Of a stretch of DNA of 64,000 bases, positions 1,094-34,671 are shown one piece after another. Position 1 is the stretch's first letter. Each line of letters opens with the position of its first letter. The notes beneath the pieces are model-generated. The model made no database searches and had not been told where the DNA came from. It saw only the letters and a program-made list of their open reading frames with translations. The stretch is from Candidatus Doudnabacteria bacterium (GTDB taxonomy: Bacteria; Patescibacteriota; Doudnabacteria; UBA920), in assembly GCA_963837465.1 (NCBI GenBank), contig CAWINB010000001.1, positions 437,646 through 501,645 of the forward strand, in the 5' to 3' direction. The position numbers and the translations under genes are program-made.

Positions 1094-1121
1094 TTAATTG
1101 TTAATTGTTAATTGTTAATTG
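1094..1121. repeat. Heptanucleotide tandem repeat (TTAATTG)x4 immediately 5' of the purL start
   Basis: Four perfect copies read directly. Confidence 0.9.
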
Positions 1122-1126
1122 TTGTT

Positions 1127-4100
1127 ATGCTTAGGTTATACGTCCAATCAACTATCCCCGATGCCCGGGCCGAGGTTAAAAAAAAGCAGTTTAGCGCCTT
1201 GGGAATAAAAAGCAAAATAGGAATGGTGTGTCTGGCGGATTGTTATACTATTGATTGTGCTCTGAATAAAAAACAAACTGAAAAAGCAAAAATTCTGCTG
1301 GCCAATCCCCTGGCGCAGGAAGTTAGCTTGGATGCAGATGTAGTTAGCCGATTTATCGGCTGCCCTGATAAGATAACAGCCCATAAATGGGCTAACTACA
1401 AGGGCCAAGCACAATCGACCTTCTCATACGCTATAGAAATCGGCTTTCTGCCGGGAGTGACGGATAATATTGGGCACACGGCAAAAGAAACGCTGGCCGA
1501 TGGCGCCAAAATCAAATTTAAAGACGGGCAGAATGTTTATTCAAGCGCCGTCTTTTTTGTTTTGTTTAAACCGGAACGCAGCGGGCAAAATCCTCGATCG
1601 CCGATAAATCGGCACGCTACGGCGGATATCCAAAAAATCGCCAACTCGCTTTATAATCCGCTTATCCAAAAAGCTACAATAACATCGGCGGCTGATTTTA
1701 AGCGCCGGGGGGATTTGGATTTTTCCGTGCCTAAAGTTAAATTGTCCGCCAGCAGCAAAGTTAGCAGGGTTAATTTGAATGTTGGGGATGAGGAGCTAAT
1801 TAAGTTGGGAAAGTTGGGCATTCCCGATAGTGTCATTGCGAGGAGGAGTGCCTCCGACGACGAAGCAATCTTATTTAAATCCAGAAAAAAGATTGCCGCG
1901 TCGGCCAGACAAAGCCCCCAACTTCGCCAAGGCTTTGTCGGGCAGGCTGGCCTCCTGGCAATGACACTAAGGCGGGGACCGCTCGCGCTATCCCTGGAAG
2001 AACTTAAAGCCATCCGCGATTATTTTAAGCGCCGCAACAGGCGGCCCACGGACATAGAACTGGAAATGCTGGCCCAGACCTGGAGCGAACACTGCAAGCA
2101 CACTATTTTTAACGATCCCATAGACGAACTAAAAGACGGGCTTTATAAAACTTACATAAAAAAAGCCACGGAAGTTATCCGCAGGCAAAAAACACGCACA
2201 CAGCGGAACAAGGGGAATCCTAGTGCCGCGCTAGGATTCCCCTTGTTGGCAGGCGACTTCTGTGTTTCCGTGTTTACCGACAACGCCGGAGGGATTTCGT
2301 TTGACGAGGATAATATAATTGCCTACAAAGTGGAAACCCACAACACGCCTTCGGCGCTGGACCCGTTTGGCGGCAGCATCACAGGTCTTGTTGGCGTTAA
2401 CCGCGATGCTTTGGGTTTTGGCCTGGGCGCCAAACCAATTGCTAATTTTTACGGTTTTTGCCTGGCGGATCCGAATGATAAAGCAGAATTGTACAGGGAT
2501 AAAAATTTACGGCAGCCGATGCTGTCCAGCCGCCGCATTATGGACGGCGTTATTGCGGGCATTAATTCCGGCGGCAACCAAAGCGGCATCCCCACGCCTT
2601 TGGGTTTTTTATATTTTGATGACAGGTTCCGCGGCAAGCCGTTGGTATTTGCCGGCACCCTGGGCTTAATCCCAAAAAAAATCGGCAACAGGCTGGGCCA
2701 TGTAAAAAAGGCGCGGCCCGGGGACTTAATAGTTACAGTCGGCGGCCGCGTGGGAGCCGACGGCATCCACGGCGCAACTTTTTCTTCCGAAGGGTTGTCA
2801 GAACACAGCCCGGCCACGGCCGTACAGATTGGCGACCCGATTACCCAAAAAAAATTCAGCGATGCCATTTGCAAAGAAATACGGGATATGAACTTATACA
2901 ACAGCATTACCGACTGCGGCGCCGGCGGTTTGTCTTCGGCCGTGGGCGAAACGGCTGAACAGGCAGGCGGTTGCGAAGTGTATCTTGACAAAGTTCCTTT
3001 AAAATATCCCGGACTTGCCCCGTGGCAAATCTGGATTTCCGAAAGCCAGGAAAGGATGGTTTTGGCCGTGCCGCCCGCCAAGTGGAAAAAATTTGAAAAA
3101 CTGATGGAAGCGCGGGGCGTGGAGGCGGCTGCAATCGGAAAATTTACAGCCGGCGGAAACTGCGTTGTAAAATACGGCGGCAAAACTATTTTGGATATTA
3201 AAATGGATTTTCTGCGCAACGGCCGGCCGAAAAAACATCTAAAAACCGAAAAACCAACATCGACAAAAATCAATCATGTCCGAAAATTGGAAATTGGAAA
3301 TTGGAAATTGGAAATCCTGCGCCTTCTTGCTTCTGCCAACATCACCTCCTCCGAATTCGTTTCCACCCAATACGACCACGAAGTCCAGGGGGGCAGCGCG
3401 CTTAAACCTTTGCAGGGCGCGGGGCGGGTAAACGGCGAGGCTTCTGTAATCCGCCCACTTTTAAATTCCCAAAAAGGCGTGGTGCTTTCTTACGGTTTGG
3501 CGCCGGAGCTTTCGGAAGTCAACCCGTACGCTATGGCCGGAGCTTCCATAGACAGCGCCATCCGTGCCGCCGTGGCCGCCGGAGCCAATGTGGATTATCT
3601 GGCTTTACTGGATAATTTTTGCTGGTGCAGTCCGGACGACCGGCGGCGTTTATGGCAACTTAAGGAAGCCGCGCGCGCCTGTTATGATTTTGCCGTGGCT
3701 TTTGGCACTCCTTTTATTTCCGGCAAAGATAGTATGTATAACGATTTTAAAGGATTTTCGGCTGACGGACAGCCGCTGAAAATTTCCATCCCTCCCACTC
3801 TGCTGATTTCGGCCGTGGGCGTAATTCCCGACGTTACAAAAGCCATATCTTTAGACGCCAAGCTTCCCGGCGACCTGATTTATATTTTAGGAGATACGGA
3901 TGATGATTTAAAAAACGGCAATGTAGTGCAGGCCCGTGGCCTGGCTCCCGCCTATGTCAACGCCCAAAAAAACCTGTCCCTCTACCGCGCCTTTTATAAA
4001 GCCGCCCAAAAAAACTTAATTGCCTCGGCAATTTCCATAAACCGCGGCGGCATGGCTATTGCTTTAGCTAAAAACCTAATTGGCGGCAATTTAGGCGCGG

Positions 4101-4366
4101 AAATAGGTTTAAAAAAAATTCCCGGTAATTGGCAGGAAAATAGCCGCGCTTTATTTAGTGAAAGCCAGGGCCGGATATTAGCGGGCATTAATCCAAAAAA
4201 ATCGGCGGAATTTGAAAAAATAATGCGGGGGAATATTTTTGCCAAAATCGGCCACATAACAGCACGAACGAATTTAAACATTATCGATAAGTCCGGCAAA
4301 AAAGTCGTACAAATTAAAACTTCCGACATGACTCGGGCTTACAAATCTACTTTTAAGAACTATTGA
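1127..4366 (+). CDS. purL: Phosphoribosylformylglycinamidine (FGAM) synthase PurL, with a large-PurL-type N-terminal (PurS-like) domain but no fused glutaminase
   Basis: N-terminus aligns with E. coli PurL (SAFRINKLL / ADLNAPLNDDEHAQLERLL vs FSALGIKSKI / DCALNKKQTEKAKILL); WSEHCKH, VETHNTPSA and QYDHEVQGG motifs; the ORF track starts at TTG 1112, ATG 1127 is more likely; TGA stop. Confidence 0.9.
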   Translation: MLRLYVQSTIPDARAEVKKKQFSALGIKSKIGMVCLADCYTIDCALNKKQTEKAKILLANPLAQEVSLDADVVSRFIGCPDKITAHKWANYKGQAQSTFSYAIEIGFLPGVTDNIGHTAKETLADGAKIKFKDGQNVYSSAVFFVLFKPERSGQNPRSPINRHATADIQKIANSLYNPLIQKATITSAADFKRRGDLDFSVPKVKLSASSKVSRVNLNVGDEELIKLGKLGIPDSVIARRSASDDEAILFKSRKKIAASARQSPQLRQGFVGQAGLLAMTLRRGPLALSLEELKAIRDYFKRRNRRPTDIELEMLAQTWSEHCKHTIFNDPIDELKDGLYKTYIKKATEVIRRQKTRTQRNKGNPSAALGFPLLAGDFCVSVFTDNAGGISFDEDNIIAYKVETHNTPSALDPFGGSITGLVGVNRDALGFGLGAKPIANFYGFCLADPNDKAELYRDKNLRQPMLSSRRIMDGVIAGINSGGNQSGIPTPLGFLYFDDRFRGKPLVFAGTLGLIPKKIGNRLGHVKKARPGDLIVTVGGRVGADGIHGATFSSEGLSEHSPATAVQIGDPITQKKFSDAICKEIRDMNLYNSITDCGAGGLSSAVGETAEQAGGCEVYLDKVPLKYPGLAPWQIWISESQERMVLAVPPAKWKKFEKLMEARGVEAAAIGKFTAGGNCVVKYGGKTILDIKMDFLRNGRPKKHLKTEKPTSTKINHVRKLEIGNWKLEILRLLASANITSSEFVSTQYDHEVQGGSALKPLQGAGRVNGEASVIRPLLNSQKGVVLSYGLAPELSEVNPYAMAGASIDSAIRAAVAAGANVDYLALLDNFCWCSPDDRRRLWQLKEAARACYDFAVAFGTPFISGKDSMYNDFKGFSADGQPLKISIPPTLLISAVGVIPDVTKAISLDAKLPGDLIYILGDTDDDLKNGNVVQARGLAPAYVNAQKNLSLYRAFYKAAQKNLIASAISINRGGMAIALAKNLIGGNLGAEIGLKKIPGNWQENSRALFSESQGRILAGINPKKSAEFEKIMRGNIFAKIGHITARTNLNIIDKSGKKVVQIKTSDMTRAYKSTFKNY
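1340..1399. repeat. Family A palindromic element, copy 2, in-frame inside the purL N-domain (encodes VVSRFIGCPDKITAHKWANY)
   Basis: gtagttagccgatttatcggctg…aacagcccataaatgggctaactac, 60 nt, a multiple of 3; the homologous E. coli segment is shorter. Confidence 0.8.
2207..2247. repeat. 41-nt perfect hairpin palindrome in-frame inside purL (17-nt arms aacaaggggaatcctag / ctaggattccccttgtt, 7-nt loop)
   Basis: Read directly; encodes NKGNPSAALGFPLL in a region about 14 aa longer than the E. coli PurL equivalent. Confidence 0.8.
3284..3311. repeat. Heptanucleotide tandem repeat (AAATTGG)x4 inside the purL coding sequence (encodes KLEIGNWKLEI in an interdomain linker)
   Basis: Four perfect tandem heptamers read directly. 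Confidence 0.9.
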
Positions 4367-4372
4367 TAGCAT

Positions 4373-4431
4373 GTAGTTAGCCGATTTATCGGCTGTTATA
4401 AAAATTGACAGCCCATAAATGGGCTAACTAC
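4373..4431. repeat. Family A palindromic element, copy 3, filling the purL-purQ spacer
   Basis: gtagttagccgatttatcggctgtt ataaaaattg acagcccataaatgggctaactac. Confidence 0.85.
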
Positions 4432-4445
4432 GCTCAAATATTCTT

Positions 4446-5228
4446 ATGCTGAACCCCCCAAAAATCCTCATCCTCTCCGGCTACGGCCTCAACTGCGAAC
4501 AGGAAACCGCGTTGGCTTTTAATTTGTCCGGCGGGGCTTCGGATATTGTCCATATAAACGATCTAATTGCCGCGCCAAAAAAACTCGCGCGATACCAAAT
4601 CCTGGCAATTCCCGGAGGCTTTTCCTACGGCGATGATTTGGGATCAGGCCGCGCTTACGCCAATAAATTAAACAGCCATTTAAAACAACAGTTGGCGGAT
4701 TTTGCTTCCAAAGACAAACTGGTCATGGGCATTTGCAACGGCTTCCAAATTTTAACCAACCTCGGGCTGCTGCCCGGCGTCCTGACTTTTAACGACAACT
4801 ACCGCTACACCGACCGCTGGGTGGATGTGTCAAGGGTGACCCTTGACACTAGCCCCTGGCTGAAAGGCATTAAAACGCTTTCTTTGCCCATAGCCCACGG
4901 TGAAGGCAAATTCGCGGCCGACGCGAAAACCCTCAAATCCATCCAACAACAAAATATGATTGGTGCTGTATACTATAAGGGTGACGTTTGCGGCTACCAA
5001 AGCCTGCCTCCGAATCCCAACGGCTCTATGCTGGACATAGCTATGCTGACATCGGCAAACGGAAAAATCCTGGGCACTATGCCCCACCCCGAACGCGCCA
5101 TCTTTTTTACCCAAACCCCCGACTGGCCGCTGCAGAAGGAAAAATTAATAAGAGCGGGCAAACTGCTTCCCGAATATGGTCCCGGATTGCAGATTTTTAA
5201 AAATGCCGTGGAATATTTCACCAATTAA
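4446..5228 (+). CDS. purQ: FGAM synthase glutamine amidotransferase subunit PurQ
   Basis: GMCNGFQ catalytic Cys motif, PIAHGEG, MPHPER; TAA stop. Confidence 0.9.
   Translation: MLNPPKILILSGYGLNCEQETALAFNLSGGASDIVHINDLIAAPKKLARYQILAIPGGFSYGDDLGSGRAYANKLNSHLKQQLADFASKDKLVMGICNGFQILTNLGLLPGVLTFNDNYRYTDRWVDVSRVTLDTSPWLKGIKTLSLPIAHGEGKFAADAKTLKSIQQQNMIGAVYYKGDVCGYQSLPPNPNGSMLDIAMLTSANGKILGTMPHPERAIFFTQTPDWPLQKEKLIRAGKLLPEYGPGLQIFKNAVEYFTN
4827..4849. repeat. 23-nt perfect palindrome gtgtcaagggtgacccttgacac inside purQ (encodes DVSRVTLDTS); an identical copy lies at 28960-28982
   Basis: Exact 23/23 identity between two unrelated genes 24 kb apart. Confidence 0.85.
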
Positions 5229-5234
5229 GTATGA

Positions 5235-5396
5235 GAAGCTGTTTAAAAAGTCATTTGGGCCGCAATTCCAGAATGTTTGGCGCCTTGCCGGAAAAAATTT
5301 TTCCGCTTAGCTTTAGGCTAAACGTCAAAATTTGTTTCCGTCAATCCGCGCAAAATTCTGTAATTTCGCCTACAAAGCACTTTTTAAACATCTTCT
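5235..5396 (+). mobile_element. MITE family 1, copy R1 (162 bp; TIR GAAGCTGTTTAAAAAG / CTTTTTAAACATCTTC; flanking TGA/TGA duplication)
   Basis: Near-identical copies at 26685-26845 and 34507-34668 in opposite orientation; 16-nt terminal inverted repeats; 3-bp TNA direct repeats. Confidence 0.8.
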
Positions 5397-5629
5397 GAGA
5401 GAATCTGACCTTATTGAGCGATATGAAGAAAACATAATGCTAGGACTGTGCGATCAAGCCAGCCACACTGGTTTTATGGATGCCTGTACAAATTTTCCAA
5501 AAAACGACCAATACGCCCAATCAATAGTTACTAGAAAAATTAGTATAACAGAGAAAGATAGGCTCATATTGTCCCAGGCGTACCAAGATGGTTACGCAAG
5601 AGGATTAATTAAAAAAGCAAGAATCGACA

Positions 5630-5737
5630 ATGAACGACTTAAATGAAAAATGCGGAGTCTTTGGGATTTTTGGTAAGAACTTGGACGTCAGCCGTCTGAC
5701 TTTTTACGGTTTGTTCGCGCTGCAGCATCGGGGTTAG
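5630..5737 (+). pseudogene. purF: purF N-terminal segment (propeptide MNDLNEK, then Cys1 nucleophile CGVFGIFG…LQHRG) ending at an in-frame TAG (5735-5737) where homologues have Gln
   Basis: Same frame as the downstream purF ORF; aligns with B. subtilis PurF MLAEIKGLNEECGVFGIWG…LQHRGQEGAG. Confidence 0.7.
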
Positions 5738-5755
5738 GAGTCATCGGGAATTGCC

Positions 5756-7051
5756 GTGTCCGATGGCAACCATATGGATGCTTACAAAAATATGGGTTTG
5801 GTAACACAGGTTTACAAAGAAGAAACCATTCAAAACCTTAAAGGGCATATTGCCATTGGCCACAATCGATATTCTACATCCGAAGGCTCGCACATCAAAC
5901 ACGCCCAACCAATAGTCATAAACAACCAACTGGCCCTGGCGCACAACGGCAATTTGCCATCGGTAAAAGCTTTAAAAGAATTTTTGGAAGCCAAGGATAT
6001 CGCCACAAATGACTGCAGTGATTCCGAGCTGATGGCAAAAGCGCTGGGTTATTATTTGGAACATGGCAACTCCATTAAAGACGCGGTTATAAAAGCTTAT
6101 CCGCTTTTTACCGGCGCTTTTTGTTTGACAATTTTAACCAAAGATTGTTTGGTGGCCGTAAGGGATACTTATGGCGTGCGACCGCTTTCCCTTGGCAAAA
6201 TAAATGGCGACGCGACTGTTGTAGCTTCGGAAACCTGCGCTTTCCACACCGTGGGCGCGGAATTTACGCGCGAAGTCCAGCCGGGTGAAATGGTTATTGT
6301 CAGCGACAAGGGAATTGAATCGGTGCAGATAGAACCGTCCCAAACCAAACTGGATATTTTTGAATTTGTTTATTTCGCGCGGCCCGACAGCCAAATTCTG
6401 GGCAAATCCGTTTACCAGGTCCGGCGCGACTCCGGCATCCAGCTGGCCAGGGAATGCCCCATTGATGCCGACATAATCGTACCCGTGCCGGAAACCGCGC
6501 TGCCGGTTGCCACCGGCTACAGCAAGCAAAGCGGCATTCCCATGGAAATGGCTTTGGTAAAAAACCGCTACATCCACCGCACTTTCATCCAGCCCGAACA
6601 GCACAGCCGCGACCTGGGGGTAAAATTAAAGCTCACTCCCCTGCCCGAAATTTTATCCGGCAAAAAAATTGTGGTAATGGACGACTCTATTGTAAGGGGC
6701 ACCACCTCGCGTCAATTGGTAAAAATGTTGTTTGAGGCGGGATGCGAGGAAGTCCATATGCTCATAAGTTCGCCGCCGGTAAAATTTCCGGACTTTTACG
6801 GCATAGACACGCCCAAGCAAAAAGATTTAATCGCCGCGCGTAAAACCGTGGAAGAAATCAGGATGTATTTGGGCGCGACTTCGCTTTACTTTTTATCTTT
6901 AAAAGGCTTAATAGAAGCCACCGGACTTTCCGAAGATGTTTTTTGCACCTCCTGCTTCACCGGAAAATATCCCATAGATTTACTGGAACGCGAGACTGAA
7001 GTTCAGCAGCCGACATACGCGGAAATTAAATCTCCGGGCGCTTTATTTTAA
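5756..7051 (+). CDS. purF: Amidophosphoribosyltransferase PurF, the portion downstream of the in-frame TAG; the functional gene would be 5630..7051
   Basis: ESSGIAVSDG…IGHNRYSTSEG (Ntn glutaminase domain) and C-terminal PRTase domain (VVMDDSIVRGTT); the ORF track starts at a GTG directly after the TAG. Confidence 0.85.
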   Translation: MSDGNHMDAYKNMGLVTQVYKEETIQNLKGHIAIGHNRYSTSEGSHIKHAQPIVINNQLALAHNGNLPSVKALKEFLEAKDIATNDCSDSELMAKALGYYLEHGNSIKDAVIKAYPLFTGAFCLTILTKDCLVAVRDTYGVRPLSLGKINGDATVVASETCAFHTVGAEFTREVQPGEMVIVSDKGIESVQIEPSQTKLDIFEFVYFARPDSQILGKSVYQVRRDSGIQLARECPIDADIIVPVPETALPVATGYSKQSGIPMEMALVKNRYIHRTFIQPEQHSRDLGVKLKLTPLPEILSGKKIVVMDDSIVRGTTSRQLVKMLFEAGCEEVHMLISSPPVKFPDFYGIDTPKQKDLIAARKTVEEIRMYLGATSLYFLSLKGLIEATGLSEDVFCTSCFTGKYPIDLLERETEVQQPTYAEIKSPGALF

Positions 7052-7127
7052 CTTAAAAGCGCCATCCCGGAATTTTAAGGGCTGTTAAAATATCCAGGAT
7101 CCAGAACCATACAACATAGTTATAAAT

Positions 7128-7724
7128 ATGCAAATTGTAATCCTAATTTCCAACGCCGGAACCGGCACTAATTTGCAGGCTATCATTAACGGCATTGGGG
7201 CCGGCCAAATAAAAGCCCGAATCGCGGCGGTGATTTGCGACAAAGCCGGCGCGCCGGGACTGGAGCGCGCTGAAAAAAGTAATTTACCCGCAAAAATTTG
7301 CCCGAAAAAAGAGGAATTGCTGCCGCTGCTAAAAAAACTTAATCCCGATTACATTTGCCTGGCCGGCTGGAAACAAATAATTCTGGACGAAGTTATTTTG
7401 GCTTTTCCAAACAAAATTTTAAATCTGCATCCGGGCTTAATTCCCGACAGAGCCGATGGTAGCGTAAAAAATCCCGACGGCACAGAGGGGCTTTGGAACA
7501 AAGGCATGTTGACCACAAAAGCTATTCAAAATTTCTTGGACCAAAAGGCCACGTTCGCCGGCTCATCCATCCATTTTTTATCTCTGGAATTTGATTTTGG
7601 CCCGGTGCTGGGCAGGTGTTTTGAAAAAATTGCGGCTGGCGATACGGTTGATGATTTGTATAAAAGACTGAAGGAAAAAGAAAACCGGTTGTACGTGGAA
7701 GTTTTAACAAAGCTTAACGGGTGA
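7128..7724 (+). CDS. purN: Phosphoribosylglycinamide formyltransferase PurN (with an insertion of about 18 aa)
   Basis: N-terminal MQIVILISNAGTGTNLQAII and NLHPGLIP motifs; TGA stop. Confidence 0.8.
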   Translation: MQIVILISNAGTGTNLQAIINGIGAGQIKARIAAVICDKAGAPGLERAEKSNLPAKICPKKEELLPLLKKLNPDYICLAGWKQIILDEVILAFPNKILNLHPGLIPDRADGSVKNPDGTEGLWNKGMLTTKAIQNFLDQKATFAGSSIHFLSLEFDFGPVLGRCFEKIAAGDTVDDLYKRLKEKENRLYVEVLTKLNG

Positions 7725-7757
7725 TAATTTTGTCAATTTCTTAATTTTTGTTCAATT

Positions 7758-9164
7758 ATGGCAAATATTCTTGTCATCGGCTCGGGAGGGCGCGAACACG
7801 CTTTGGCGTGGAAGCTTAAGCAGTCGCCCAAGGTCGGCAAAATTTTTGCGGCGCCGGGGAACGGCGGCAGTTCTTTGCTGGCGGAAAATGTGGAGATTAA
7901 AGCTACAGACGTTTTGGCTTTGGCCGACTGGGCGGAAAACAATAAAATTGATTTTACGGTGGTCGGGCCGGATGACGCCCTGGCTTTGGGTATTGTGGAT
8001 GAATTCCAAAAAAGAGGCCTTAAAATTTGGGGGCCGGGCAAAGCCGCGGCTAAAATTGAATCCAGTAAGGCTTTTGCCAAAAAGCTGATGGAAGAAAATG
8101 ATATTCCGACGGCGGAGTTTAAGGTTTTTAATGATTACGGTCAAGCATTGTTATACGTTCAAAGCCATTTCCAAGGTAGCGTGCCCATCGCGTATCAAAG
8201 TATGGGACAAGCTTATGGGCGTCCTAGTTCGCCCATAAATGGGCACGCTACAAGACCCGTTGTCATCAAAGCCTCGGGCCTGGCCTTGGGCAAAGGCGTT
8301 GCCGTGTGCGAAACCTTGGACGAGGCCAAAAACTTTTTGCAAGACGTTATGGTCAATAAAATTTTCGGCGACTCCGGAAGTGAAGTCGTCATAGAAGAAT
8401 TTTTACAGGGCCGGGAATTTTCCGTCCACGCTTTTTGCGACGGCAAAAACTTTAAGCTTTTTCCGTCGGCGCAGGATCATAAAACCATTTACGACAATGA
8501 CCAAGGCCCCAACACCGGCGGTATGGGCGCCATTGCTCCGGTGCCGTGGGTTACAAATGACCTGATGAAACAAGTATCGTCGGAGATTGTAAAACCCGCG
8601 CTGGAAGGTTTAAAAAATCTGGGCTCGCCGTTTGTGGGGTTATTATATCCGGGATTGATGGCAATAACAGCCGATAAATCGGCTAACTACGCGGCTTTTG
8701 TAGTCAGCCCATTTATGGGCTCAATCAAAATTATAGAATTCAACGCCCGTTTCGGCGACCCCGAAACCCAAAGCTATATGCGCCTGCTGAAAACAGATCT
8801 TTACGATATTTTAGAAGCCTGCGTCAACGGCAGTTTGGACAAAATCAATATTGAGTGGTCAAAAAAGTCGGCCTGCTGCATAGTTTTAGCCAGCGGCGGC
8901 TACCCCGGCGAATACAAAAAAGGTTTGCCCATTACGGGAATTGCGGACGCGGAAAAAATGGATGATATCATAATTTTCCACGCCGGAACGGCAATCAAAG
9001 ATGGTCAATTAGTTACCAACGGTGGCCGCGTTTTAGGAGTCACGGCAATTGCAGATGATTTACAGACAGCGCTCAACAAAGCCTACACAGCCATCAAGCT
9101 AATCAATTTTAAAGGAATGCGATACAGAAGCGATATCGGGCAAAAAACTTTAACCTATGTTTGA
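7758..9164 (+). CDS. purD: Phosphoribosylamine-glycine ligase PurD carrying two in-frame palindromic insertions
   Basis: MANILVIGSGGREHALAWKL, VIKASGLALGKGV, GPNTGGMGA, EFNARFGDPETQ; TGA stop overlapping the next ATG (ATGTTTGA). Confidence 0.9.
   Translation: MANILVIGSGGREHALAWKLKQSPKVGKIFAAPGNGGSSLLAENVEIKATDVLALADWAENNKIDFTVVGPDDALALGIVDEFQKRGLKIWGPGKAAAKIESSKAFAKKLMEENDIPTAEFKVFNDYGQALLYVQSHFQGSVPIAYQSMGQAYGRPSSPINGHATRPVVIKASGLALGKGVAVCETLDEAKNFLQDVMVNKIFGDSGSEVVIEEFLQGREFSVHAFCDGKNFKLFPSAQDHKTIYDNDQGPNTGGMGAIAPVPWVTNDLMKQVSSEIVKPALEGLKNLGSPFVGLLYPGLMAITADKSANYAAFVVSPFMGSIKIIEFNARFGDPETQSYMRLLKTDLYDILEACVNGSLDKINIEWSKKSACCIVLASGGYPGEYKKGLPITGIADAEKMDDIIIFHAGTAIKDGQLVTNGGRVLGVTAIADDLQTALNKAYTAIKLINFKGMRYRSDIGQKTLTYV
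8176..8251. repeat. Divergent family A-like palindromic element in-frame inside purD (arms gtagcgtgcccat / atgggcacgctac; inner gcccataaatgggc)
   Basis: 13-nt perfect inverted arms; encodes about 25 extra residues relative to E. coli PurD just before the VIKADG motif. Confidence 0.7.
8667..8722. repeat. Family A palindromic element in-frame inside purD, in right-half then left-half order (aacagccgataaatcggctaactac … gtagtcagcccatttatgggct); encodes AITADKSANYAAFVVSPFMGS
   Basis: About 20-aa insertion between the conserved GLM and KVIEFN(C/A)RFGDPETQ motifs. Confidence 0.8.
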
Positions 9165-10008
9165 GCTTACCGAACAAATAAAAATTTGCAAAAAAACCCG
9201 GGAGCTGGCGTCTCAAACCGTGGCCGCGGTTTTATCTGAAAATAATTTGTCGGAAACGGGATTCTGCGCGAAATTAGCCCAAAGGCTTTATCAAAAACCC
9301 AATTGGGACCAAGGCTGGTACAGTCCGCCGCCAAAAGGCCTCGCGGCGCTGTTCGGTGTTGGGCGCGTGGCTTACGACAGCTTGCGCAAAGAAGAATTCT
9401 GGCCCAAAAACCGGTTTATTTTTTCCGGCGGTTCACTGGGTTACGTTTATGCCTCGCCAGTTAACAGGCTTAGCGGGATAATCGGCGATTTTGGCCTTAC
9501 AATTTATAAAGGCGCTGACCAAAAAATTATCAATCATATAAAAGTCTGTCTGGATATTACGGAAAAAACCGCCGAATACGCGCGGGCGGGTATGGAACTC
9601 CGGGAGGTTTACAATTACTGCCAGAAGCTGATGGCCGAAAAAGGCCTCAACAATAAAAGGATGCTGGCATATAATGACAAAACCAAAACTAACATAGGGC
9701 ATACTGTCCCCTGGAGTCATAAGCGGCCTTTGGATGAAGAATTTAAGATAATTGAAGATTCAAATTTTGAAAAACTTAAAGATCTCATCAGCTCAAAGCG
9801 GATAACATTAAACGCGCGAGAAACTTTTAAAATTCCCCCAACCATTGCTTTTACAATTGAACCTCGTATGGAAAACGACGAGAGTCCACTTGTCTCATTT
9901 CATATGATTGTGGCTTTTAAAGATGGCAAAAAAGAAATCCTGGCAAATTTCAAACCGGTTTTTCAGGCCTTAAATATGGATAAATTAATTGTCAGCAAGT
10001 ATGATTAA
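9157..10008 (+). CDS. Divergent M24-family (methionine aminopeptidase / pita-bread fold) protein of unknown role inside the pur operon
   Basis: Weak motif matches NIGHTVPW (HGIGH-like) and IAFTIEPRM (FTIEP); 283 aa; start overlaps the purD stop. Confidence 0.35.
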   Translation: MFELTEQIKICKKTRELASQTVAAVLSENNLSETGFCAKLAQRLYQKPNWDQGWYSPPPKGLAALFGVGRVAYDSLRKEEFWPKNRFIFSGGSLGYVYASPVNRLSGIIGDFGLTIYKGADQKIINHIKVCLDITEKTAEYARAGMELREVYNYCQKLMAEKGLNNKRMLAYNDKTKTNIGHTVPWSHKRPLDEEFKIIEDSNFEKLKDLISSKRITLNARETFKIPPTIAFTIEPRMENDESPLVSFHMIVAFKDGKKEILANFKPVFQALNMDKLIVSKYD

Positions 10009-10672
10009 ACTCATTGCTTTTGACTGGAATGGCACTTTGCTTTCGGATGCCGCCCTTACCGTTAAAGCCGAAAATAAGGCTTTAACAGCTGTAGGGGTAA
10101 AGCCAATAACCCTGACAGAATTTAGGGAAGCTTTTGACATACCTATAACAAAATATTGGAAAAATATCGGTTTCTCGGACAAATTCGCTAAAGCCAACCT
10201 CCGGACTCTTGAAGACGTGTTTCATTTAAACTATAAAAAAATGACGGCCAAGGCAGAAACACGCTCGGGGGTCAGGGAAATTTTAAAATGGTTGAAAAAA
10301 ATAAGAATTAAAACGGTTATTTACAGCAACCACGACATACCGGACATTAAAAGACATTTGTCCCGACTAAAATTAAGCGGACTCCTGGATGAGGTCTTAG
10401 CCAACAAAGCGGACGAGCGGCTGCAGGTTTTTATAAGGCATAAGGGTGAAAAGCTTCACCGTTACTGCCTGAAAAATAAAATTAAGCCTCACGAAATAAT
10501 TTCCGTTGGAGATATGGAAGAGGAAATAGACATTGCCAAAAAATACGGCTACCACAGTGTCGCGCTTACCGGAGGTTTTAATTCCACCGTCCAGCTAAAA
10601 AGTAAGCATCCTGACTTTTTAATCAACAACATGAGAGAACTTATAGGGATTATCAAAAAGCTTAATTCCTGA
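10001..10672 (+). CDS. HAD-superfamily hydrolase
   Basis: Motif I FDWNGTL and motif IV GDMEEEID; ATG 10001 overlaps the upstream stop (ATGATTAA); TGA stop. Confidence 0.65.
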   Translation: MIKLIAFDWNGTLLSDAALTVKAENKALTAVGVKPITLTEFREAFDIPITKYWKNIGFSDKFAKANLRTLEDVFHLNYKKMTAKAETRSGVREILKWLKKIRIKTVIYSNHDIPDIKRHLSRLKLSGLLDEVLANKADERLQVFIRHKGEKLHRYCLKNKIKPHEIISVGDMEEEIDIAKKYGYHSVALTGGFNSTVQLKSKHPDFLINNMRELIGIIKKLNS

Positions 10673-10716
10673 TAATATAAAGTTATAAATCTAATATTCT
10701 AAATCTTACATCTTAT

Positions 10717-11229
10717 ATGAATCCACTTGTAGGAATTCTAATGGGTAGTGACAGCGACCTTAATGTGATGCGGGAGGCGGCCAAGGTTTTGGAGGAATTT
10801 GGCGTGGGTTATGAAATAACCGTTTGTTCGGCCCATCGCACCCCGGAACGGGCGCATAAGTACGCGTCTACGGCAGTCGAAAGAGGCCTTAAAGTTATTG
10901 TTGCCAGCGCTGGCGGCGCGGCGCATTTAGCTGGAGTTATGGCGGCCAATACAACTCTGCCTGTTATTGGCGTGCCTATCAATTGGAAACTTAATGGCCT
11001 GGATTCCCTGCTATCCACCGCGCAAATGCCGCCGGGCGTTCCTGTGGCTACAGTAGGAATAGACGCCGGCAAAAACGCCGGACTGTTAGCCGTGCAAATT
11101 TTGGCAACGGCCGATGAAGCTTTAAGCAAAAAGCTTACCGACTACAAAACCAAAATGGCGGAACAAATAAACGCCAAAGCTAAAAAATTGGAAGAGATGG
11201 GGTATAAAAAATATTTGGAATCAAAGTAA
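10717..11229 (+). CDS. purE: AIR carboxylase / N5-CAIR mutase PurE
   Basis: GILMGSDSD…CSAHRTP…[18 protein letters not shown]. Confidence 0.9.
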
Positions 11230-11231
11230 AT

Positions 11232-11297
11232 GTAGTTAGCCCTATTTTCTGGGCTGTCCCCTACCATAAATTAACAGCCGATAAATCGGCTAACTAC
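11232..11297. repeat. Family A palindromic element, copy filling the purE-purM spacer
   Basis: gtagttagccctattttctgggctgtcc…aacagccgataaatcggctaactac. Confidence 0.85.
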
Positions 11298-11306
11298 AAA
11301 AACACG

Positions 11307-12440
11307 ATGACTAAATCAGAATACGCCAAATCCGGAGTGGACTATACTGTTATGGAGCCTTTTAAGATGGCTATGATCGCGGCCGGGAAGAAGACTTTAA
11401 AGTTCCCCAATAAGCGGAGGGTTTTTATTAACGAAGACGCGGCGCACGCCCACGGCGCCGTGTTTGAATACAGAGGCGCAAGTCCGCACATTTGGTGCCA
11501 GACCCAGGAAGATTTAGGGAACAAAAACTGGATAGCGGAATGGATGTATGAAAGGACGGGAAAAAGTTATTATGATTCCATAGCGATTGATACCGCGCTA
11601 ATTGTGGTCAACGATGTTATTGCCCAGGGCGCTATGCCCGTGGTTTTTACGGACCAACTGGAAGCATCGGAAAGTTCCTGGTATGCCGACGAAAAACGGG
11701 CTAAAGATTTCGCGGACGGATTTTTAAAAATCTGCGAGGAAGTCGGTATGGCTTTGCCGGCCGGCGAAAGCGCCAGTTGCACTTATTTGATTAACCCCAA
11801 GGCTCCGGTAAAACAAATTGCCACATTAAGCGGCTCGGTTACAGGAATTGTCGCGCCCAAACAAAATTTAATTACGGGACAAAAATTGCAGGCAGGAGAT
11901 CACATCATAGCGGTGTCATCATCTGGCCTGCACGCCAACGGAATTTCTTTGGTCATAAAAAAGGCCATGGAGTTGCCGGAGCAGTTTTTAACGAAAATTG
12001 ATACTGACGGCATGCCCCGGCATGCCGCTACGATCGGAGAACAAGCTTTAATCCCCACGCGATCTTACGTTAAGTTAATAGAAACGCTTTTGGAAAACCG
12101 GATTAAAATCCACGCCTTGCTCCCCGGCACCGGCGACGGCGTGGGCAAAATCGCCTTTGACCACCGCAGCTTTACTTACCGTATACATTCCTGGCTGCCT
12201 GTGCCGCCGCTTATGCGCTATTTTAAAGATGTGATAGGAATTAACATCCAGGACTGCCTAAAAACCTTTAACTGGGGTGTCGGCTACTATATTTTTACTC
12301 CGGCCGAGGAAGTTGATAGAATACTTAAGCTGGGTAAGCAGGCTGGTTACGAACTCGCGGATGTGGGAATTGTAGAAGCCGGAAAAAGACAAACAATTTT
12401 TGAACCTGAGAATATAACATTAAACCCTCCGGGGGAGTAA
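11307..12440 (+). CDS. purM: AIR synthase-related (PurM-like) protein
   Basis: YAKSGVDY and IAIDTALIVVNDVIAQGAMP align with PurM SYKDAGVDI / [20 protein letters not shown]; divergent, 377 aa. Confidence 0.65.
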   Translation: MTKSEYAKSGVDYTVMEPFKMAMIAAGKKTLKFPNKRRVFINEDAAHAHGAVFEYRGASPHIWCQTQEDLGNKNWIAEWMYERTGKSYYDSIAIDTALIVVNDVIAQGAMPVVFTDQLEASESSWYADEKRAKDFADGFLKICEEVGMALPAGESASCTYLINPKAPVKQIATLSGSVTGIVAPKQNLITGQKLQAGDHIIAVSSSGLHANGISLVIKKAMELPEQFLTKIDTDGMPRHAATIGEQALIPTRSYVKLIETLLENRIKIHALLPGTGDGVGKIAFDHRSFTYRIHSWLPVPPLMRYFKDVIGINIQDCLKTFNWGVGYYIFTPAEEVDRILKLGKQAGYELADVGIVEAGKRQTIFEPENITLNPPGE

Positions 12441-12448
12441 AAGTATCT

Positions 12449-12509
12449 GGTATTTTGTATAGTATTTAGCATGGAGACGCTTTGATACTAAATACTATAT
12501 ACAAAATAC
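12449..12509. repeat. AT-rich long hairpin (about 22-bp arms) in the purM-purC spacer
   Basis: ggtattttgtatagtatttagcat … atactaaatactatatacaaaatac; no U-tract follows. Confidence 0.6.
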
Positions 12510-12524
12510 TTAATACTACAAAAT

Positions 12525-13526
12525 ATGGACAAACAAACCATTGAAAAAAACTTAGACAGGGTGTTGGAAAAAACAGTTTTTTCCGCCAAAGGCGGATCCG
12601 CCTCCGGCGGAAAAAACCTTAACCTCGGCCAACGGCGGCAAGGGAAGGTGCGGGATATTTATACCCAAGCTGATAAGATTATTTTAGTATCAACCGATCG
12701 CTATAGCGCTTTTGACCGAAACCTGGCGCTTATTCCATTTAAGGGCCAAGTATTAACCCAGGTCAGCAAGTGGTGGTTTGAGCAGACCAAGGATATTATC
12801 CAGAACCATCTTATAGAAAGTCCGGACCCTAACGTGGTGGTGGTAAAAAAATGCTCGGTCATTCCAATAGAAATGGTGGTAAGGGGTTACATTACGGGCG
12901 TGACCGGCACATCTTTATGGACTTTGTACCAAAACGGCCAGCGGGATTTTGGCGACTTTACATTGCCGGACGGGATGAAAAAAAACCAAAAATTGGACAA
13001 GCCGGTGCTGACTCCCACGACCAAATCCGACGAGCACGACAAACCGCTGACGACCAAAGAAATAATTGAACAAAAAATCGTGCCCAAAGAACTGTGGAAA
13101 CAATTAGCAAGCACGGCGACCAAACTTTTTATCCGTGGTCAGGAGCTGGCTTTACAGCACGGGTTAATTTTAGTGGATACTAAGTATGAGTTTGGATTGG
13201 CTGATGATGGTAGGCTGATGTTAATAGACGAAATCCACACGCCGGATTCATCGCGCTACTGGCAGGCGGATTCCTACCAGGCCAGAATAGACGAAGGAAA
13301 AGAACCGCAGAATTTTGACAAAGAATTTTTAAGGTTGTGGTTTAAGGAAAATTCAAACCCCTACGAAGACAAAATTTTACCAAAAGCTCCCTCAGATATG
13401 ATAGCGGAACTTTCTTCCCGCTACATCCAGATTTTTGAACAAATTACCGGGGAAAAATTTGAGGCTGATTTGGACACGCCGATTGTGGAGAGGATAGAAA
13501 AGAATTTAAGACGTTTCGGAGTGTAG
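12525..13526 (+). CDS. purC: SAICAR synthetase PurC (long form)
   Basis: GKVRDIY, VVRGYITG, LILVDTKYEFG motifs; the TAG stop is supplied by the first bases of a family A element. Confidence 0.85.
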   Translation: MDKQTIEKNLDRVLEKTVFSAKGGSASGGKNLNLGQRRQGKVRDIYTQADKIILVSTDRYSAFDRNLALIPFKGQVLTQVSKWWFEQTKDIIQNHLIESPDPNVVVVKKCSVIPIEMVVRGYITGVTGTSLWTLYQNGQRDFGDFTLPDGMKKNQKLDKPVLTPTTKSDEHDKPLTTKEIIEQKIVPKELWKQLASTATKLFIRGQELALQHGLILVDTKYEFGLADDGRLMLIDEIHTPDSSRYWQADSYQARIDEGKEPQNFDKEFLRLWFKENSNPYEDKILPKAPSDMIAELSSRYIQIFEQITGEKFEADLDTPIVERIEKNLRRFGV

Positions 13527-13603
13527 TTAGCCCATTTATGGGCTGTTGAAATATTACTGTTGTTATTTAATAGTTTTGAACAGCCCATAAATGGGCTAAC
13601 TAC
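13523..13603. repeat. Family A palindromic element filling the purC-purB spacer (it overlaps the purC stop codon)
   Basis: gtagttagcccatttatgggctgtt…aacagcccataaatgggctaactac. Confidence 0.85.
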
Positions 13604-13607
13604 AACT

Positions 13608-14993
13608 ATGCTAAACTCCATCTCTCCTATCGACGGCCGCTACGGCAAAACCACCGAATCTTTAGCTAAATATTTCAGCGAAGCCGCGCTTATGAAATTC
13701 CGCCTTATTGTTGAAGGTGAATATTTAATCGCGCTGGCGGATTTAAAAGTCGCGCGGAAATTATCGGACAAAGAAAAGCAAACCATCCGCTCTTTGTATA
13801 ACTTGTCTGAAACCGATGCCCAAATAATTTCCGATATAGAAACCAGGGGCTACAAAAACATAAAAGCCACGGACCATGACGTTAAAGCCGTGGAGTATTT
13901 TATGAAGTATAAACTGGCAGAGACATCATTAAAAGATATTTTGGAATATCTGCATTTTGCGCTGACTTCCTATGATACCAATACTGTTGCTCGTGGATTA
14001 ATGCTAAGCGACGGCTTGGGGAACATCTTGCTGCCAAAAATTGATGAAATCATCAAAGCTTTAAACACTCTGGCAAAAAAATATGTTAGGCTGGCAATTT
14101 TAGCCCGCACTCACGGCCAGCCCGCTTCTCCAACGACTTTTGGCAAGGAATTTAAAGTCTTTGCGTTTCGTCTGGAAAAACAAATTCGATTACTTAAAAA
14201 TTTAAAAGTTTCGGTCAAATTCAGCGGCGCCAGCGGCAACTACAATGCCCATATGGCAGCTTATCCTAAAATTAATTGGTTAAAATTTTCGCAAAAATTC
14301 GTGGGGGGGTTTAATAAAAATCGAGCGGTTAAAATCGAGCTGAACGAAATTGCCACCCAAATTGACCCTCACGACCGCGAAGCGGAAATTTTTGACTGCC
14401 TGCGCCGCATTAATACTATCCTCATAGATTTTAACCAGGACATCTGGCGCTATATTTCCGATGATTGGATTGTTCAAAAACCAGTTGAGGGCGCCGTCGG
14501 CAGCAGCACAATGCCGCACAAAGTTAATCCGATTAAATTTGAGAACAGCGAAGGCAACCTGGGGCTGGCCAACGCGCTGTTTGAATTTTTCGCCCGCAAA
14601 CTGCCTGTTAGCCGGCTGCAAAGGGACTTGTCGGATTCCACGGTTGAGAGAAATTTCGGGACCGCTTTGGCGCACTGCTTAATCGCCTACGAATATCTGC
14701 TCAAAGGATTGTCGCGAATAACCATTAACGAACAAAAAGTCCGCGCCGACTTAAACAGCCATCCGGAAATTTTGGCCGAAGCCATGCAAACCGTCCTGCG
14801 GCGCGAAGGCCTTAAAATGCCTTATGAACAACTAAAGGAATTAACCCGCGGCAGACAAATCACTCTGGCTGACCTTCATAAATTTATTGGCGAGCTGAAC
14901 ATTAGCGATAAAGTAAAAAAAGAGCTCAAAACGTTTACTCCGGAAAATTATATTGGCCTGGCAAGCAAATTATCATCGGATAAATTTAAATAA
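13608..14993 (+). CDS. purB: Adenylosuccinate lyase PurB
   Basis: MLNSISPIDGRYG aligns with the E. coli PurB N-terminus (SPVDGRYG); HDVKAVEYF, SSTMPHKVNP; start is ATG 13608, the ORF track start at 13560 lies inside the repeat. Confidence 0.9.
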   Translation: MLNSISPIDGRYGKTTESLAKYFSEAALMKFRLIVEGEYLIALADLKVARKLSDKEKQTIRSLYNLSETDAQIISDIETRGYKNIKATDHDVKAVEYFMKYKLAETSLKDILEYLHFALTSYDTNTVARGLMLSDGLGNILLPKIDEIIKALNTLAKKYVRLAILARTHGQPASPTTFGKEFKVFAFRLEKQIRLLKNLKVSVKFSGASGNYNAHMAAYPKINWLKFSQKFVGGFNKNRAVKIELNEIATQIDPHDREAEIFDCLRRINTILIDFNQDIWRYISDDWIVQKPVEGAVGSSTMPHKVNPIKFENSEGNLGLANALFEFFARKLPVSRLQRDLSDSTVERNFGTALAHCLIAYEYLLKGLSRITINEQKVRADLNSHPEILAEAMQTVLRREGLKMPYEQLKELTRGRQITLADLHKFIGELNISDKVKKELKTFTPENYIGLASKLSSDKFK

Positions 14994-17147: not shown

Positions 17148-17984
17148 CTACCTGGCGCCTACCACAAACCTCGTCGCTACGTATGCCAAAAAGGTAATGG
17201 TGGTGATAAAAAAGCTTACCGGGTATGGGAGATAGAAAGAAAGAAATAAGCTGATCCACGTAGCGGCCAAAGCTAGGGCTACGGATATGGCTATGCCCTG
17301 GGCGGGACGCCGGGCCAGTTGCTGGGCTACGGCCGCTGGGGTAACCATCAGCGCGAATATCAAAAGAACGCCGACTACCTGCACCGCTATGGAAGTAGCG
17401 ACGGCGACCAGCAGCATAAAGGCCGCGCCTATCCAAAAAATTGATATGCCCCTGGCCTCGGCGACATCTTCATCCAAAGATGTAAACAGCAAAGGACGAT
17501 ACATAACGGCAACCGCGATCATAAGCAGCAGCCCGGCTATGGCTGTCACCACTACATCGCCGCGGCTTATGCCCAGTATTTCCCCAAACAACAGCGAGTA
17601 AGCTTCGGTGGCATAACCGGAATAGAGGCTTATAAACAGCACGCCTATGCCGAGCATAAAAGCCAGCACGGTGCCGATTTGAACGTCTCGCGTGGCCGCT
17701 TTACGCCCAAGTATGGCGATGGCAAAACCGCCGCCGCAGGTAAAAACCAAAAGTCCCACAAGCGGATTTAAACCAAACAGCACGGCGCCGGCCGCTCCGG
17801 CAAACCCGATATGGGACAGCGCGTGCGCCGCGAATGACGACCGCCGCAGGACTATAAAATAGCCGATGACTCCGGCCACAACAGCGACAACCGTTCCCGC
17901 TTCAAAAGCGTGGCGCATAAAATCATACTGCCACATTGAAGCCAGGTCGCCGATGATATTAAAACTAAAATTAATGCTGTTCAT
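17148..17984 (-). CDS. znuB: Metal (Zn/Mn) ABC transporter permease, ABC-3 (ZnuB/MntB-like)
   Basis: ABC-3 family hydrophobic profile; TAG stop; start overlaps the znuC stop. Confidence 0.75.
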   Translation of the reverse strand: MNSINFSFNIIGDLASMWQYDFMRHAFEAGTVVAVVAGVIGYFIVLRRSSFAAHALSHIGFAGAAGAVLFGLNPLVGLLVFTCGGGFAIAILGRKAATRDVQIGTVLAFMLGIGVLFISLYSGYATEAYSLLFGEILGISRGDVVVTAIAGLLLMIAVAVMYRPLLFTSLDEDVAEARGISIFWIGAAFMLLVAVATSIAVQVVGVLLIFALMVTPAAVAQQLARRPAQGIAISVALALAATWISLFLSFYLPYPVSFFITTITFLAYVATRFVVGAR

Positions 17985-18765
17985 GGTGGTGGGGCGTTTC
18001 ATCTATGCCGATTATGGCAATTCTTCCGCGGGAATCTTTTAATACTTCCACCGGGATGTCGTAAAGTTTTGTCAGCGCCTCCGAAGTTAAAACCTCGGAC
18101 GGCTTTCCGTTGGTTAAGCGGCCATTGGCCACATAAATGACCCGGTCCAGCACCGACAGGAGCGGATTAATGTTATGGGCTATCAACAAAACCGTAACGC
18201 CCCTTAAGCGCACAACATCATTAATCAGCTGGACGAAATCAGACTCCCTGCGGATATCCAAATTGGCCAAAGGCTCGTCCAAAAGCAGAAGTTCCGGCTC
18301 CCCGACCAAGCTTTCGGCCAAAAATACTCTCTGCAGCTCCCCGCCTGACAGCGCGCCCAAACGGCGGTGCGCCAGATTTTCCGCGCCCACAATTTTAAGC
18401 ACATCCATGGCTTTATCGGTGGCATCTTTCCCCATGCTTATTCCAAAACGATTTCCATTAAGTCCCAACCGTACAATTTCCAGGGCTTCTATTCCTGTTT
18501 CAGCGTCTATGGGATGCCTTTGGGGAATATAGCCGATCCTGTGGTCGCCGCGGCTGGGACTCTTGCCAAAAACAGACAAAGATCCCGTTAGCGGCCGGGT
18601 CAAGCCCAGCAAAAGCCGGAACAGAGTTGTCTTTCCGGCTCCGTTGGGGCCAAGCACCGCCACAAATTCGCCCTTTTCTATGGAGAAACGGGCGTCCTGC
18701 CAAACCATTTTATCCTTATAGCCGGCCGACAGATTATTGGCCGCGATGACAATGTCTTTGTTCAT
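17971..18765 (-). CDS. znuC: Metal ABC transporter ATP-binding protein (ZnuC-like)
   Basis: Walker A GPNGAGKTT, signature LSGGELQR, Walker B LLLLDEP. Confidence 0.8.
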   Translation of the reverse strand: MNKDIVIAANNLSAGYKDKMVWQDARFSIEKGEFVAVLGPNGAGKTTLFRLLLGLTRPLTGSLSVFGKSPSRGDHRIGYIPQRHPIDAETGIEALEIVRLGLNGNRFGISMGKDATDKAMDVLKIVGAENLAHRRLGALSGGELQRVFLAESLVGEPELLLLDEPLANLDIRRESDFVQLINDVVRLRGVTVLLIAHNINPLLSVLDRVIYVANGRLTNGKPSEVLTSEALTKLYDIPVEVLKDSRGRIAIIGIDETPHHHEQH

Positions 18766-19811: not shown

Positions 19812-21071
19812 CTAATCATCCGGCGTAGAGGTGGCATTGCTTGTGCCCGTAGCGTTATTAGTTGTGGAACTCGCTGCGTCATCAGAAGTTGGTTCAGTTG
19901 TGGACGCTGGTTGGGAAGATAAATCCCGCGGCAAAACATCAACAGCACTGCTGGCCGAAGAACTGGCATCGCTGGCATTTAAAGAGCCCGGCATAGATGA
20001 GGCCGCTGGTGGGCTACCCAAGTTGGCAGAAGGCGCGGCTTGGGACACCACGGAATTAACTGTGGCGCACTTACCGGCTGCTTCCCGCAGCATATTATTG
20101 GCCGAAAACACACAGACCGGTTGGCCGGTAACGGTGTCATAAATTGTAATACCCTCGGGGTCGCCTGGCGAGCCGACTTCCAGGCGCTTGGTCCGGATAA
20201 AATCCGCAGCCAGGGTTTCGACCTTTATGATGTCCTGCTGTATGGAAATTCCCAATTGATTTAAGGCCTGCAAAACCCAGGATACATCCAATAAACTGTT
20301 AATTTTTTGGTCCAGTCCCTGAATGCCGGCCAAAGCTACCCCGGCCGGATCAATGGTGGAAATGGAACTGCTGCTGTCGCCCAGGCCAAAATCGGCGTAA
20401 AAGTCTTCGGCCACCGGCCCCATATGCACTACGTTGGAATTTTCTGTTTTATAGTTCCAGGTATAAACCGGCAGACTGTCGATTTTTGTTAAAATATCGG
20501 CCGGGCTGACTGTGGCGAAATTTTCCTTTAACTCACGGCCGGAGGCATTAGTCCAGTCGTAGCCGTCAAAATTGGCAGTTGAAGCCGGCGATTCTATGGT
20601 CGCGACATTTAAATCGTTGTCCGTAATGCCGGAAGTAAAATTAGCCGGGCCGTCCACTTCCATAGGCGCTCCCGAGTTTACATTCAGGCTGGTTTGGGCG
20701 GTAACATCTCCTCCGGAAAGCTCCGTAAAGCCAGCTATGTTGCCGGGGAGATTATTGTTATAGCTTATGGGAACAGGACCGCCTATTTCGGCGGCCGCGT
20801 CCTGGCCGGGGTCGCCTTTGTCGCCTTGTTGCCCCTTAAGCAGACCCTGTGCCACCAGCGCGTTGACTTCATCAATAACCAGACTGGTTATATAAGCACC
20901 GGTAGGATCCTCTATGACGGAAGTCGCGGGTTTTTTATTTTGCCTGGGAGCAGGAGTATTTTTTTGGGAAATTGGTTTTGGCCTTTGATTTTTGTTTTGG
21001 GCGACAACCGGTGTTAAGGGCAAAAGCAAAGTCAGCGCGGACAAGCTTACGCCCAAAAATATTCTTTTCAT
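19812..21071 (-). CDS. Secreted collagen-like / Peptidase_S74 (intramolecular chaperone, tail-fibre-type) domain protein
   Basis: Signal peptide, GDKGDPGQ collagen-like triplets, S74-like C-terminal region, Ser/Thr-rich tail. Confidence 0.5.
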   Translation of the reverse strand: MKRIFLGVSLSALTLLLPLTPVVAQNKNQRPKPISQKNTPAPRQNKKPATSVIEDPTGAYITSLVIDEVNALVAQGLLKGQQGDKGDPGQDAAAEIGGPVPISYNNNLPGNIAGFTELSGGDVTAQTSLNVNSGAPMEVDGPANFTSGITDNDLNVATIESPASTANFDGYDWTNASGRELKENFATVSPADILTKIDSLPVYTWNYKTENSNVVHMGPVAEDFYADFGLGDSSSSISTIDPAGVALAGIQGLDQKINSLLDVSWVLQALNQLGISIQQDIIKVETLAADFIRTKRLEVGSPGDPEGITIYDTVTGQPVCVFSANNMLREAAGKCATVNSVVSQAAPSANLGSPPAASSMPGSLNASDASSSASSAVDVLPRDLSSQPASTTEPTSDDAASSTTNNATGTSNATSTPDD

Positions 21072-24656: not shown

Positions 24657-24947
24657 ATGGCGTTCCAAGAAAATAAACCACAGCCCCCGCAAAGTGAACA
24701 TGGAGAAATACAAAAACAAGCTCCCGAATCGCAAGAGCAGCGGAAAGAAAGTTTAGGGGACAAAATTAAACGCTTCGCCGGACGAATAAGCGAGCGTTTC
24801 GGTCAATTTGGGCAAAGAAAGCAATCTGCTGAATCTAATTTGGGCGCTGTTGTTGAATGGGCGCGTGAAAACAACGGGTTAATTTACAAAGAGGACGGGC
24901 ATACAAAACTTGCCGGACAAACTATCAAAGAACTGTTAGGCGAATAG
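24657..24947 (+). CDS. Hypothetical hydrophilic protein
   Basis: ORF with TAG stop. Confidence 0.4.
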   Translation: MAFQENKPQPPQSEHGEIQKQAPESQEQRKESLGDKIKRFAGRISERFGQFGQRKQSAESNLGAVVEWARENNGLIYKEDGHTKLAGQTIKELLGE

Positions 24948-26449: not shown

Positions 26450-26684
26450 TTTGTTAGGGTTAAGGCTCTTGGCCTTATTCTAACATTTCGGAATTAATTT
26501 AGCAAGAGAGTATACACAGAGTTCAACTTGATTTAGGGGTTTCGGTAGATGACATAAAAGGGCCACCCAACATTTTCAAAAAAGAATAATCAAACTTTTA
26601 CTAAAAACTTATCCAACTGTTTTACCGCATACCCGTAACTTCCAGCGATTTGCACCCAATCCATAGTTCTATAATCGTCCCTAA

Positions 26685-26845
26685 GAAGATGTTTAAAAAG
26701 TGCTTTGTAGGCGAAATTACAGAATTTTGCGCGGATTGACGGAAACAAATTTTGACGTTTAGCCTAAAGCTAAGCGGAAAAATTTTTTCCGGCAAGGCGC
26801 CAAACATTCCGGAATTGCGGCCCAAATGACTTTTTAAACAGCTTC
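26685..26845 (-). mobile_element. MITE family 1, copy R2 (TAA/TAA duplication)
   Basis: Reverse complement of R1 with terminal GAAGATGTTTAAAAAG / CTTTTTAAACAGCTTC. Confidence 0.8.
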
Positions 26846-34495: not shown

Positions 34496-34506
34496 ACAGG
34501 CTCTTA

Positions 34507-34668: not shown

Positions 34669-34671
34669 TAG

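Follow-up and report, generated by a model that had tools for sequence, protein, structure and literature searches.

The purine operon and its interrupted purF gene

The window (the whole stretch of DNA that was analysed, 64,000 nucleotides from a Candidatus Doudnabacteria bacterium) carries a purine operon on the forward strand (1112-14993), whose genes were identified by Pfam matches. The operon comprises purL (1112-4366; start codon uncertain), purQ (4446-5228), purF (5630-7051), purN (7128-7724), purD (7758-9164), an M24-like gene (9157-10008), an HAD gene (9989-10672), purE (10717-11229), purM (11307-12440), purC (12525-13526), and purB (13608-14993). All of these genes are intact except purF, which is interrupted by an in-frame TAG. 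The other purine genes (given as nine) are full length, with numbers of private changes that are within the span seen in their relatives.

The amber codon is codon 36 of purF (5735-5737, forward strand; context GGT TAG GAG) and is preceded in frame by 35 codons that begin with the ATG at 5630-5632. In translation and in the alignment with the enzyme of Bacillus subtilis, this 5' segment (5630-5734, forward strand) consists of a 7-residue leader, MNDLNEK, followed by the catalytic Cys8 (TGC, 5651-5653) and the sequence up to Gly35. Beyond the TAG, the frame continues with ESSGIAVSDGNH... for 437 codons to a TAA at 7049-7051; according to its family matches, this 3' segment (5738-7051, forward strand) encodes the remainder of the glutaminase domain and the phosphoribosyltransferase domain. 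An uninterrupted frame that joins the two domains is absent from purF as written. For this genome, the public protein collection contains only a shortened PurF call, the 425-aa protein P0001 (MDAYKNMG...) from a single 699,532-bp contig present in NCBI and ENA, which corresponds to the downstream open reading frame (5774-7051, forward strand; 100% identity, 90% coverage), starts at ATG 5774, and does not include the Cys nucleophile. By its sequence, the locus is a purF gene, yet one that would be non-functional as written.

With Gln restored at the TAG, the 473-aa product matches the purF family model TIGR01134 with 468.9 bits (cutoff 350) and does so end to end (residues 8-448 on profile positions 1-432 of 432). 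Its best alignment is with the PurF of B. subtilis (1AO0, at an E value of 7.6e-124; also aligned to 1GPH); the assignment is a true gene-family match and not a chance pattern. Cys8 falls on Cys1 of the mature B. subtilis enzyme, and the TAG occupies the place of Gln28 (counted from the alignment) in the motif LQHRGQE. Its nearest PurF homologues carry the labels Doudnabacteria or Patescibacteria. The codon in question specifies Gln in all 24 close homologues in the protein alignment and in all 80 loci from related genomes of Patescibacteria (47 CAG, 33 CAA), and is a stop in none of them.

These results bear out the original prediction, which had described an interruption of purF by an in-frame TAG at a conserved Gln, a Cys nucleophile in the upstream segment of the same frame, an alignment with B. 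subtilis PurF that extends into the leader, and a downstream reading frame that on its own lacks the nucleophile. The distance from CAG is, as it had stated, a single C-to-T transition, and the comparison with related genomes that it had recommended returned a Gln codon throughout.

A separate peculiarity of this PurF concerns the iron-sulfur cluster, whose ligands in the B. subtilis enzyme are Cys236, Cys382, Cys437, and Cys440. By alignment, the corresponding codons of the window gene are 242, 388, 439, and 442 (at about 6353-6355, 6791-6793, 6944-6946, and 6953-6955). The first two positions are occupied by Asp (D242 and D388), which is invariant in the 25-sequence alignment, and the C-x-x-C pair at codons 439 and 442 is retained. 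The cluster may be absent from PurF in this clade or may be held by unusual ligands.

Conservation on both sides of the amber codon

Apart from the stop itself, PurF carries no private substitution at any of the columns that are invariant in the other 23 homologues. When the gene is compared with those of seven relatives, synonymous and amino-acid differences number 13-19 and 2-7, respectively, in its first 35 codons and 137-167 and 78-95 in the remainder. Because synonymous differences far exceed amino-acid differences in both parts, both were maintained as one coding gene. A long-standing, decaying pseudogene was therefore rejected: purF has a single lesion, its invariant columns are free of private changes, and the neighbouring genes are intact. 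The intactness of the remainder of purF and of the operon suggests that the change to TAG is very young, and the intact purine genes with their ordinary numbers of private changes argue against an error-rich assembly as well as against long-standing decay.

TAG as a terminator in the window

Among the 66 non-overlapping open reading frames of at least 100 aa in the window, 43 end in TAA, 13 in TAG, and 10 in TGA. The original prediction had named four genes that are clearly terminated by TAG and had considered a global reassignment of this codon unlikely. All four are indeed terminated in this way, namely purC (12525-13526), the gene of an ABC-3/ZnuB-type permease (17148-18002), the Peptidase_S74 gene (19812-21071), and ORF 24657-24947. 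Conceptual readthrough of the TAG-terminated frames yields only short tails that do not look like coding sequence, with the exception of purC, whose TAG is in frame with purB (13524-13607), so that efficient amber suppression would produce a PurC-PurB fusion. In 21 related loci, PurC terminates no more than a few residues away from the TAG of the window, and in one of them exactly there.

An interruption scan of the 64-kb window, in which every stop with an open frame on both sides was considered and the flanks were scored by codon usage, identified purF as the sole interrupted gene with homology support among about 85 genes. The stops at 23683 and 43901 also have coding-like flanks on both sides, yet were rejected as further split genes for want of Pfam support. 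Together with stop usage, the readthrough tails, and the terminus of PurC, the scan excludes a global reassignment of TAG to Gln within the window. The amber-recoded phages of the human gut (code 15) likewise carry TAG where their homologues have Gln, but there the TAGs are found in many genes and do not terminate any, whereas here a single gene of about 85 is affected and TAG ends about 20% of the genes.

One further frame next to a TAG deserves mention. A stretch resembling the N-terminus of a type IV pilin (KREDFTLIELLAAVSVIGLLASVFLA; 51742-51840) directly follows the TAG of ORF 51520-51741 in the same frame and is closed by a stop 32 codons later. A pilin gene fragment or a mis-called start may account for it.

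Decoding of the stop and restart downstream

The TAG lies exactly at a position that requires Gln, and the gene shows no decay, as would be allowed if the codon were decoded as Gln, either by a supE-like tRNA-Gln(CUA) encoded elsewhere on the chromosome or by a near-cognate tRNA-Gln, with the stop serving as a translational throttle. Near-cognate tRNAs of Escherichia coli are known to insert Gln, among other residues, at UAG (PMC4333366), and a readthrough product could thus be wild type. If this were true, PurF would be made at a throttled level, and this lineage of the candidate phyla radiation would have entered an early phase of TAG reassignment in which decoding is ambiguous. This is the only reading of the locus that would be of wider interest, but we consider it very improbable. 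The stop is not conserved in any of the 80 related genomes, and TAG is a genuine terminator for about a fifth of the genes, all of which would be extended by a strong suppressor, with PurC fused to PurB.

Elements that could promote decoding are also missing from the surroundings. The tRNA scan that had been proposed to detect a suppressor was run within the 64-kb window with ARAGORN and returned no tRNA gene and hence no tRNA with a CUA anticodon; the window also yielded no Rfam match. The RNA fold of positions 5700-5830 is unexceptional (z = -1.53; 15 of 200 shuffled sequences fold at least as well), and neither a stimulatory structure nor a leaky context was found at the TAG of purF. The base that follows the stop is a G, and UAG-G is a good termination context for RF1 rather than a leaky one. 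Suppression by supE (glnV) is similar in that insertion of Gln would restore wild-type PurF, but differs in that the window encodes no suppressor tRNA, the stop is absent from every relative, and its context is not leaky. Programmed readthrough was rejected on the same grounds, since neither the 80 related genomes nor the 24 homologous proteins have a stop, the context is UAG-G, and the fold is unremarkable.

Alternatively, translation might be reinitiated behind the TAG, giving rise to an N-terminally truncated PurF that is partly functional and forms phosphoribosylamine from free ammonia, which would be compatible with a real mutation. An AGGAG at 5736-5740 precedes an in-frame GTG (5756) and ATG (5774), and the phosphoribosyltransferase domain is complete in the downstream segment. 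The Cys nucleophile is not needed for such a reaction, as Cys1 mutants of E. coli PurF retain ammonia-dependent activity. Nevertheless, a functional restart product appears extremely improbable. The AGGAG is poorly spaced (15 nt to the GTG, 33 nt to the ATG), and truncation would remove not the nucleophile alone but 42-48 residues from the core of the glutaminase domain, which makes misfolding likely. No homologue among the full-length relatives starts at this point, and the short database entries that were checked are artefacts, such as the one caused by a run of N in locus L083.

This locus (496-1918; scaffold_13393 of GROS21-1 in ENA) contains the purF of a relative, which is 85% identical and includes a gap of 10 N that results in separate calls of 63 aa and 374 aa. 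Its entry, P0071, was rejected as a second case of a split purF, since the split is an artefact of the scaffold gap and the codon at the site in question is CAG. It illustrates that shortened PurF entries in databases can be artefacts.

Independent assemblies and the possibility of a base-call error

The region was partly recovered in an independent assembly, namely the Logan contigs of run ERR10755945. Contig L001 corresponds to positions 5783-12606 of the window without a single mismatch in 6,824 bases, and contig L002 ends at about position 5263. The intervening stretch (5264-5782; about 520 bases), which includes the TAG, is covered by neither of these two contigs, which were retrieved by exact-protein look-up; the 35-aa peptide and two versions of ORF 5332-5646, looked up in the same exact manner, did not lead to a bridging contig. 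When the first 70 residues were used as a query, no partial PurF with Gln from the same species was recovered (best match 84% identical), the representative genomes of GTDB do not include a sister genome of the same species (best match 83% identical), and an exact scan of JGI metagenomes for the 26 nt around the site, with either C or T, gave no match.

The end of L002 is probably explained by an intergenic repeat element of about 170 nt, which is located in the 400-nt spacer between purQ and purF (5240-5400, forward strand) and recurs at 26681-26850 and 34503-34672 (both reverse strand) and, in part, at 47523-47587; the two full copies that were compared are 97% identical. The copy in front of purF is context and no part of the lesion. 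A frameshifted gene between purQ and purF was considered and rejected, as the space is taken by an unrelated gene in the relative L003 and by the repeat element in the window. Likewise, the breaks between the Logan contigs do not support a polymorphism at 5735: the left break is within the repeat element, and the right break (5783) is at the start of the conserved YKNMGLV stretch, more than 31 nt from the site. The window also contains a pair of direct repeats of 220 nt (50398-50617 and 59614-59833; 71% identical and 9.2 kb apart) among small open reading frames on the reverse strand.

That the T at 5735 is an artefact of base calling or assembly, and that the organism has CAG and an intact purF, is an appreciable possibility that falls somewhat short of an even chance. 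Such an error might have arisen in a Nanopore-only assembly, if a methylated motif overlapping or close to the site left the pyrimidine ambiguous, or from an assembler that followed an incorrect or low-frequency path. The site differs by just one C/T transition, and neither purF nor the operon has any further defect. In R10.4.1 assemblies, methylation-induced ambiguities mainly concern choices between C and T or A and G in the minimal context 'TY/RA' (PMC11610573), and the T that precedes the site (GGT-[T/C]-AGG) fits this context, although about a quarter of all pyrimidines do so, which renders the criterion weak and of low specificity. The length of the source contig (699,532 bp, compared with 2-7 kb for the Logan contigs) is compatible with a long-read source, as is the origin of several relatives from Nanopore-only, Medaka-polished soil genomes (PMC12313526). 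By contrast, the 64 kb do not show any frameshift or other broken gene, which indicates a high consensus quality, and L001 is identical to the window over 6.8 kb. The similarity to the ambiguities described for R10.4.1 data (PMC11610573) thus consists in an isolated C/T choice after a T in a long contig of high quality; the difference is that the purine genes of the window contain no second suspicious transition.

Single-base stops at this position are also encountered elsewhere, probably as assembly noise. A scan of JGI metagenomes with the pattern A-L-Q-H-R-G-TAG-E-x-x-G-I retrieved three unrelated purF contigs, only 42-44% identical to the purF of the window, with TAG at the same Gln codon (L084, 2130-2164, reverse strand; L085, 72-106, forward strand; L086, 192-226, forward strand). 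Their purF genes have no further in-frame stop, the neighbouring genes on L084 are free of in-frame TAG, and L086 has a coverage of 0.88x; only in L085 is the TAG in a CCAGG context. At a rough estimate, the collection holds about 10^5 comparable copies of purF, which would place the rate per site at about 10^-5 to 10^-4. On the simplest reading, the three cases are sporadic and within the noise of assembly and mutation; the alternative would be a hotspot at this codon.

A young nonsense allele as the best explanation

The interruption most likely stems from a recent knockout or a sequencing error rather than from a novel way of reading the genetic code. The best explanation, to which we assign about an even chance, is a genuine and very recent null allele, created by one isolated C-to-T change. 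This transition would have converted the CAG of the invariant Gln36 (Gln28 of the mature enzyme) to an amber codon in an otherwise intact purF. Ribosomes, for which TAG is the normal terminator, would release a peptide of 35 residues, and a restart at GTG 5756 or ATG 5774 would yield a product without the Cys nucleophile and without the initial strands of the glutaminase fold. Given such a peptide and such defective restarts, the allele would be null, or at most very leaky, for glutamine-dependent synthesis of phosphoribosylamine. The knockout would have arisen recently, might still be polymorphic in the assembled population, and may represent the first step in the loss of de novo purine synthesis by a symbiont able to salvage purines. 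The sequence, its homology, the use of TAG as a stop, and the lack of further lesions are observed directly, whereas it is inferred that the T is truly part of the DNA, that function is lost, and that the change has this evolutionary meaning.

Two observations count against the young null allele. No internal stop was found among about 200 copies of purine genes in the related loci, which suggests that, within the group, genuine nonsense alleles seldom occur in this pathway, and a lone transition in a flawless region also resembles a systematic base-call error. From the list of causes in the original prediction, both a nonsense mutation or population variant and a sequencing error are retained, whereas programmed readthrough found no support.

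In kind, the feature is already known: it is either a commonplace nonsense codon due to one base or an artefact of the same appearance. It resembles the classical amber mutations of the lacI collection, in that a single C-to-T change makes TAG out of a Gln codon, that the gene is otherwise intact, and that no compensating feature is present. It differs from them in its context, GGT-CAG-GAG, which is not a CCWGG (Dcm) hotspot, and in that it is known solely from the assembly of an uncultured organism.

If the T is real, the locus shows a pathway at the very beginning of its loss from a reduced symbiont, with all of its other genes still intact, which would be a neat example of a well-known process but nothing new. 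In either case, purF should be annotated as interrupted by an internal stop, rather than called as a 425-aa protein, and de novo purine synthesis should not be scored as complete in metabolic reconstructions before the reads at 5735 have been checked.

A palindromic motif confined to the purine operon

A palindromic motif of 21 nt, ACAGCYSATAAATSRGCTAAC, is present in nine copies, all of them within the purine operon and none elsewhere in the 64 kb; the number expected by chance is 0. The copies are located at 921-941, 1343-1363 (reverse strand), 1376-1396, 4376-4396 (reverse strand), 4408-4428, 8667-8687, 11274-11294, 13526-13546 (reverse strand), and 13580-13600; in the spacers that precede purQ, purM, and purB, they are often arranged as convergent pairs. 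Two of the copies are inside the reading frames of purL and purD, and none is directly in front of purF. Downstream of the pair that precedes purB, the ATG at 13608 is likely to be the true start of this gene, as opposed to the TTG at 13560 given by the ORF finder. The motif also occurs near purF in four related genomes (L006, L008, L010, and L011) and could be an operator of a purine regulon or an RNA hairpin.
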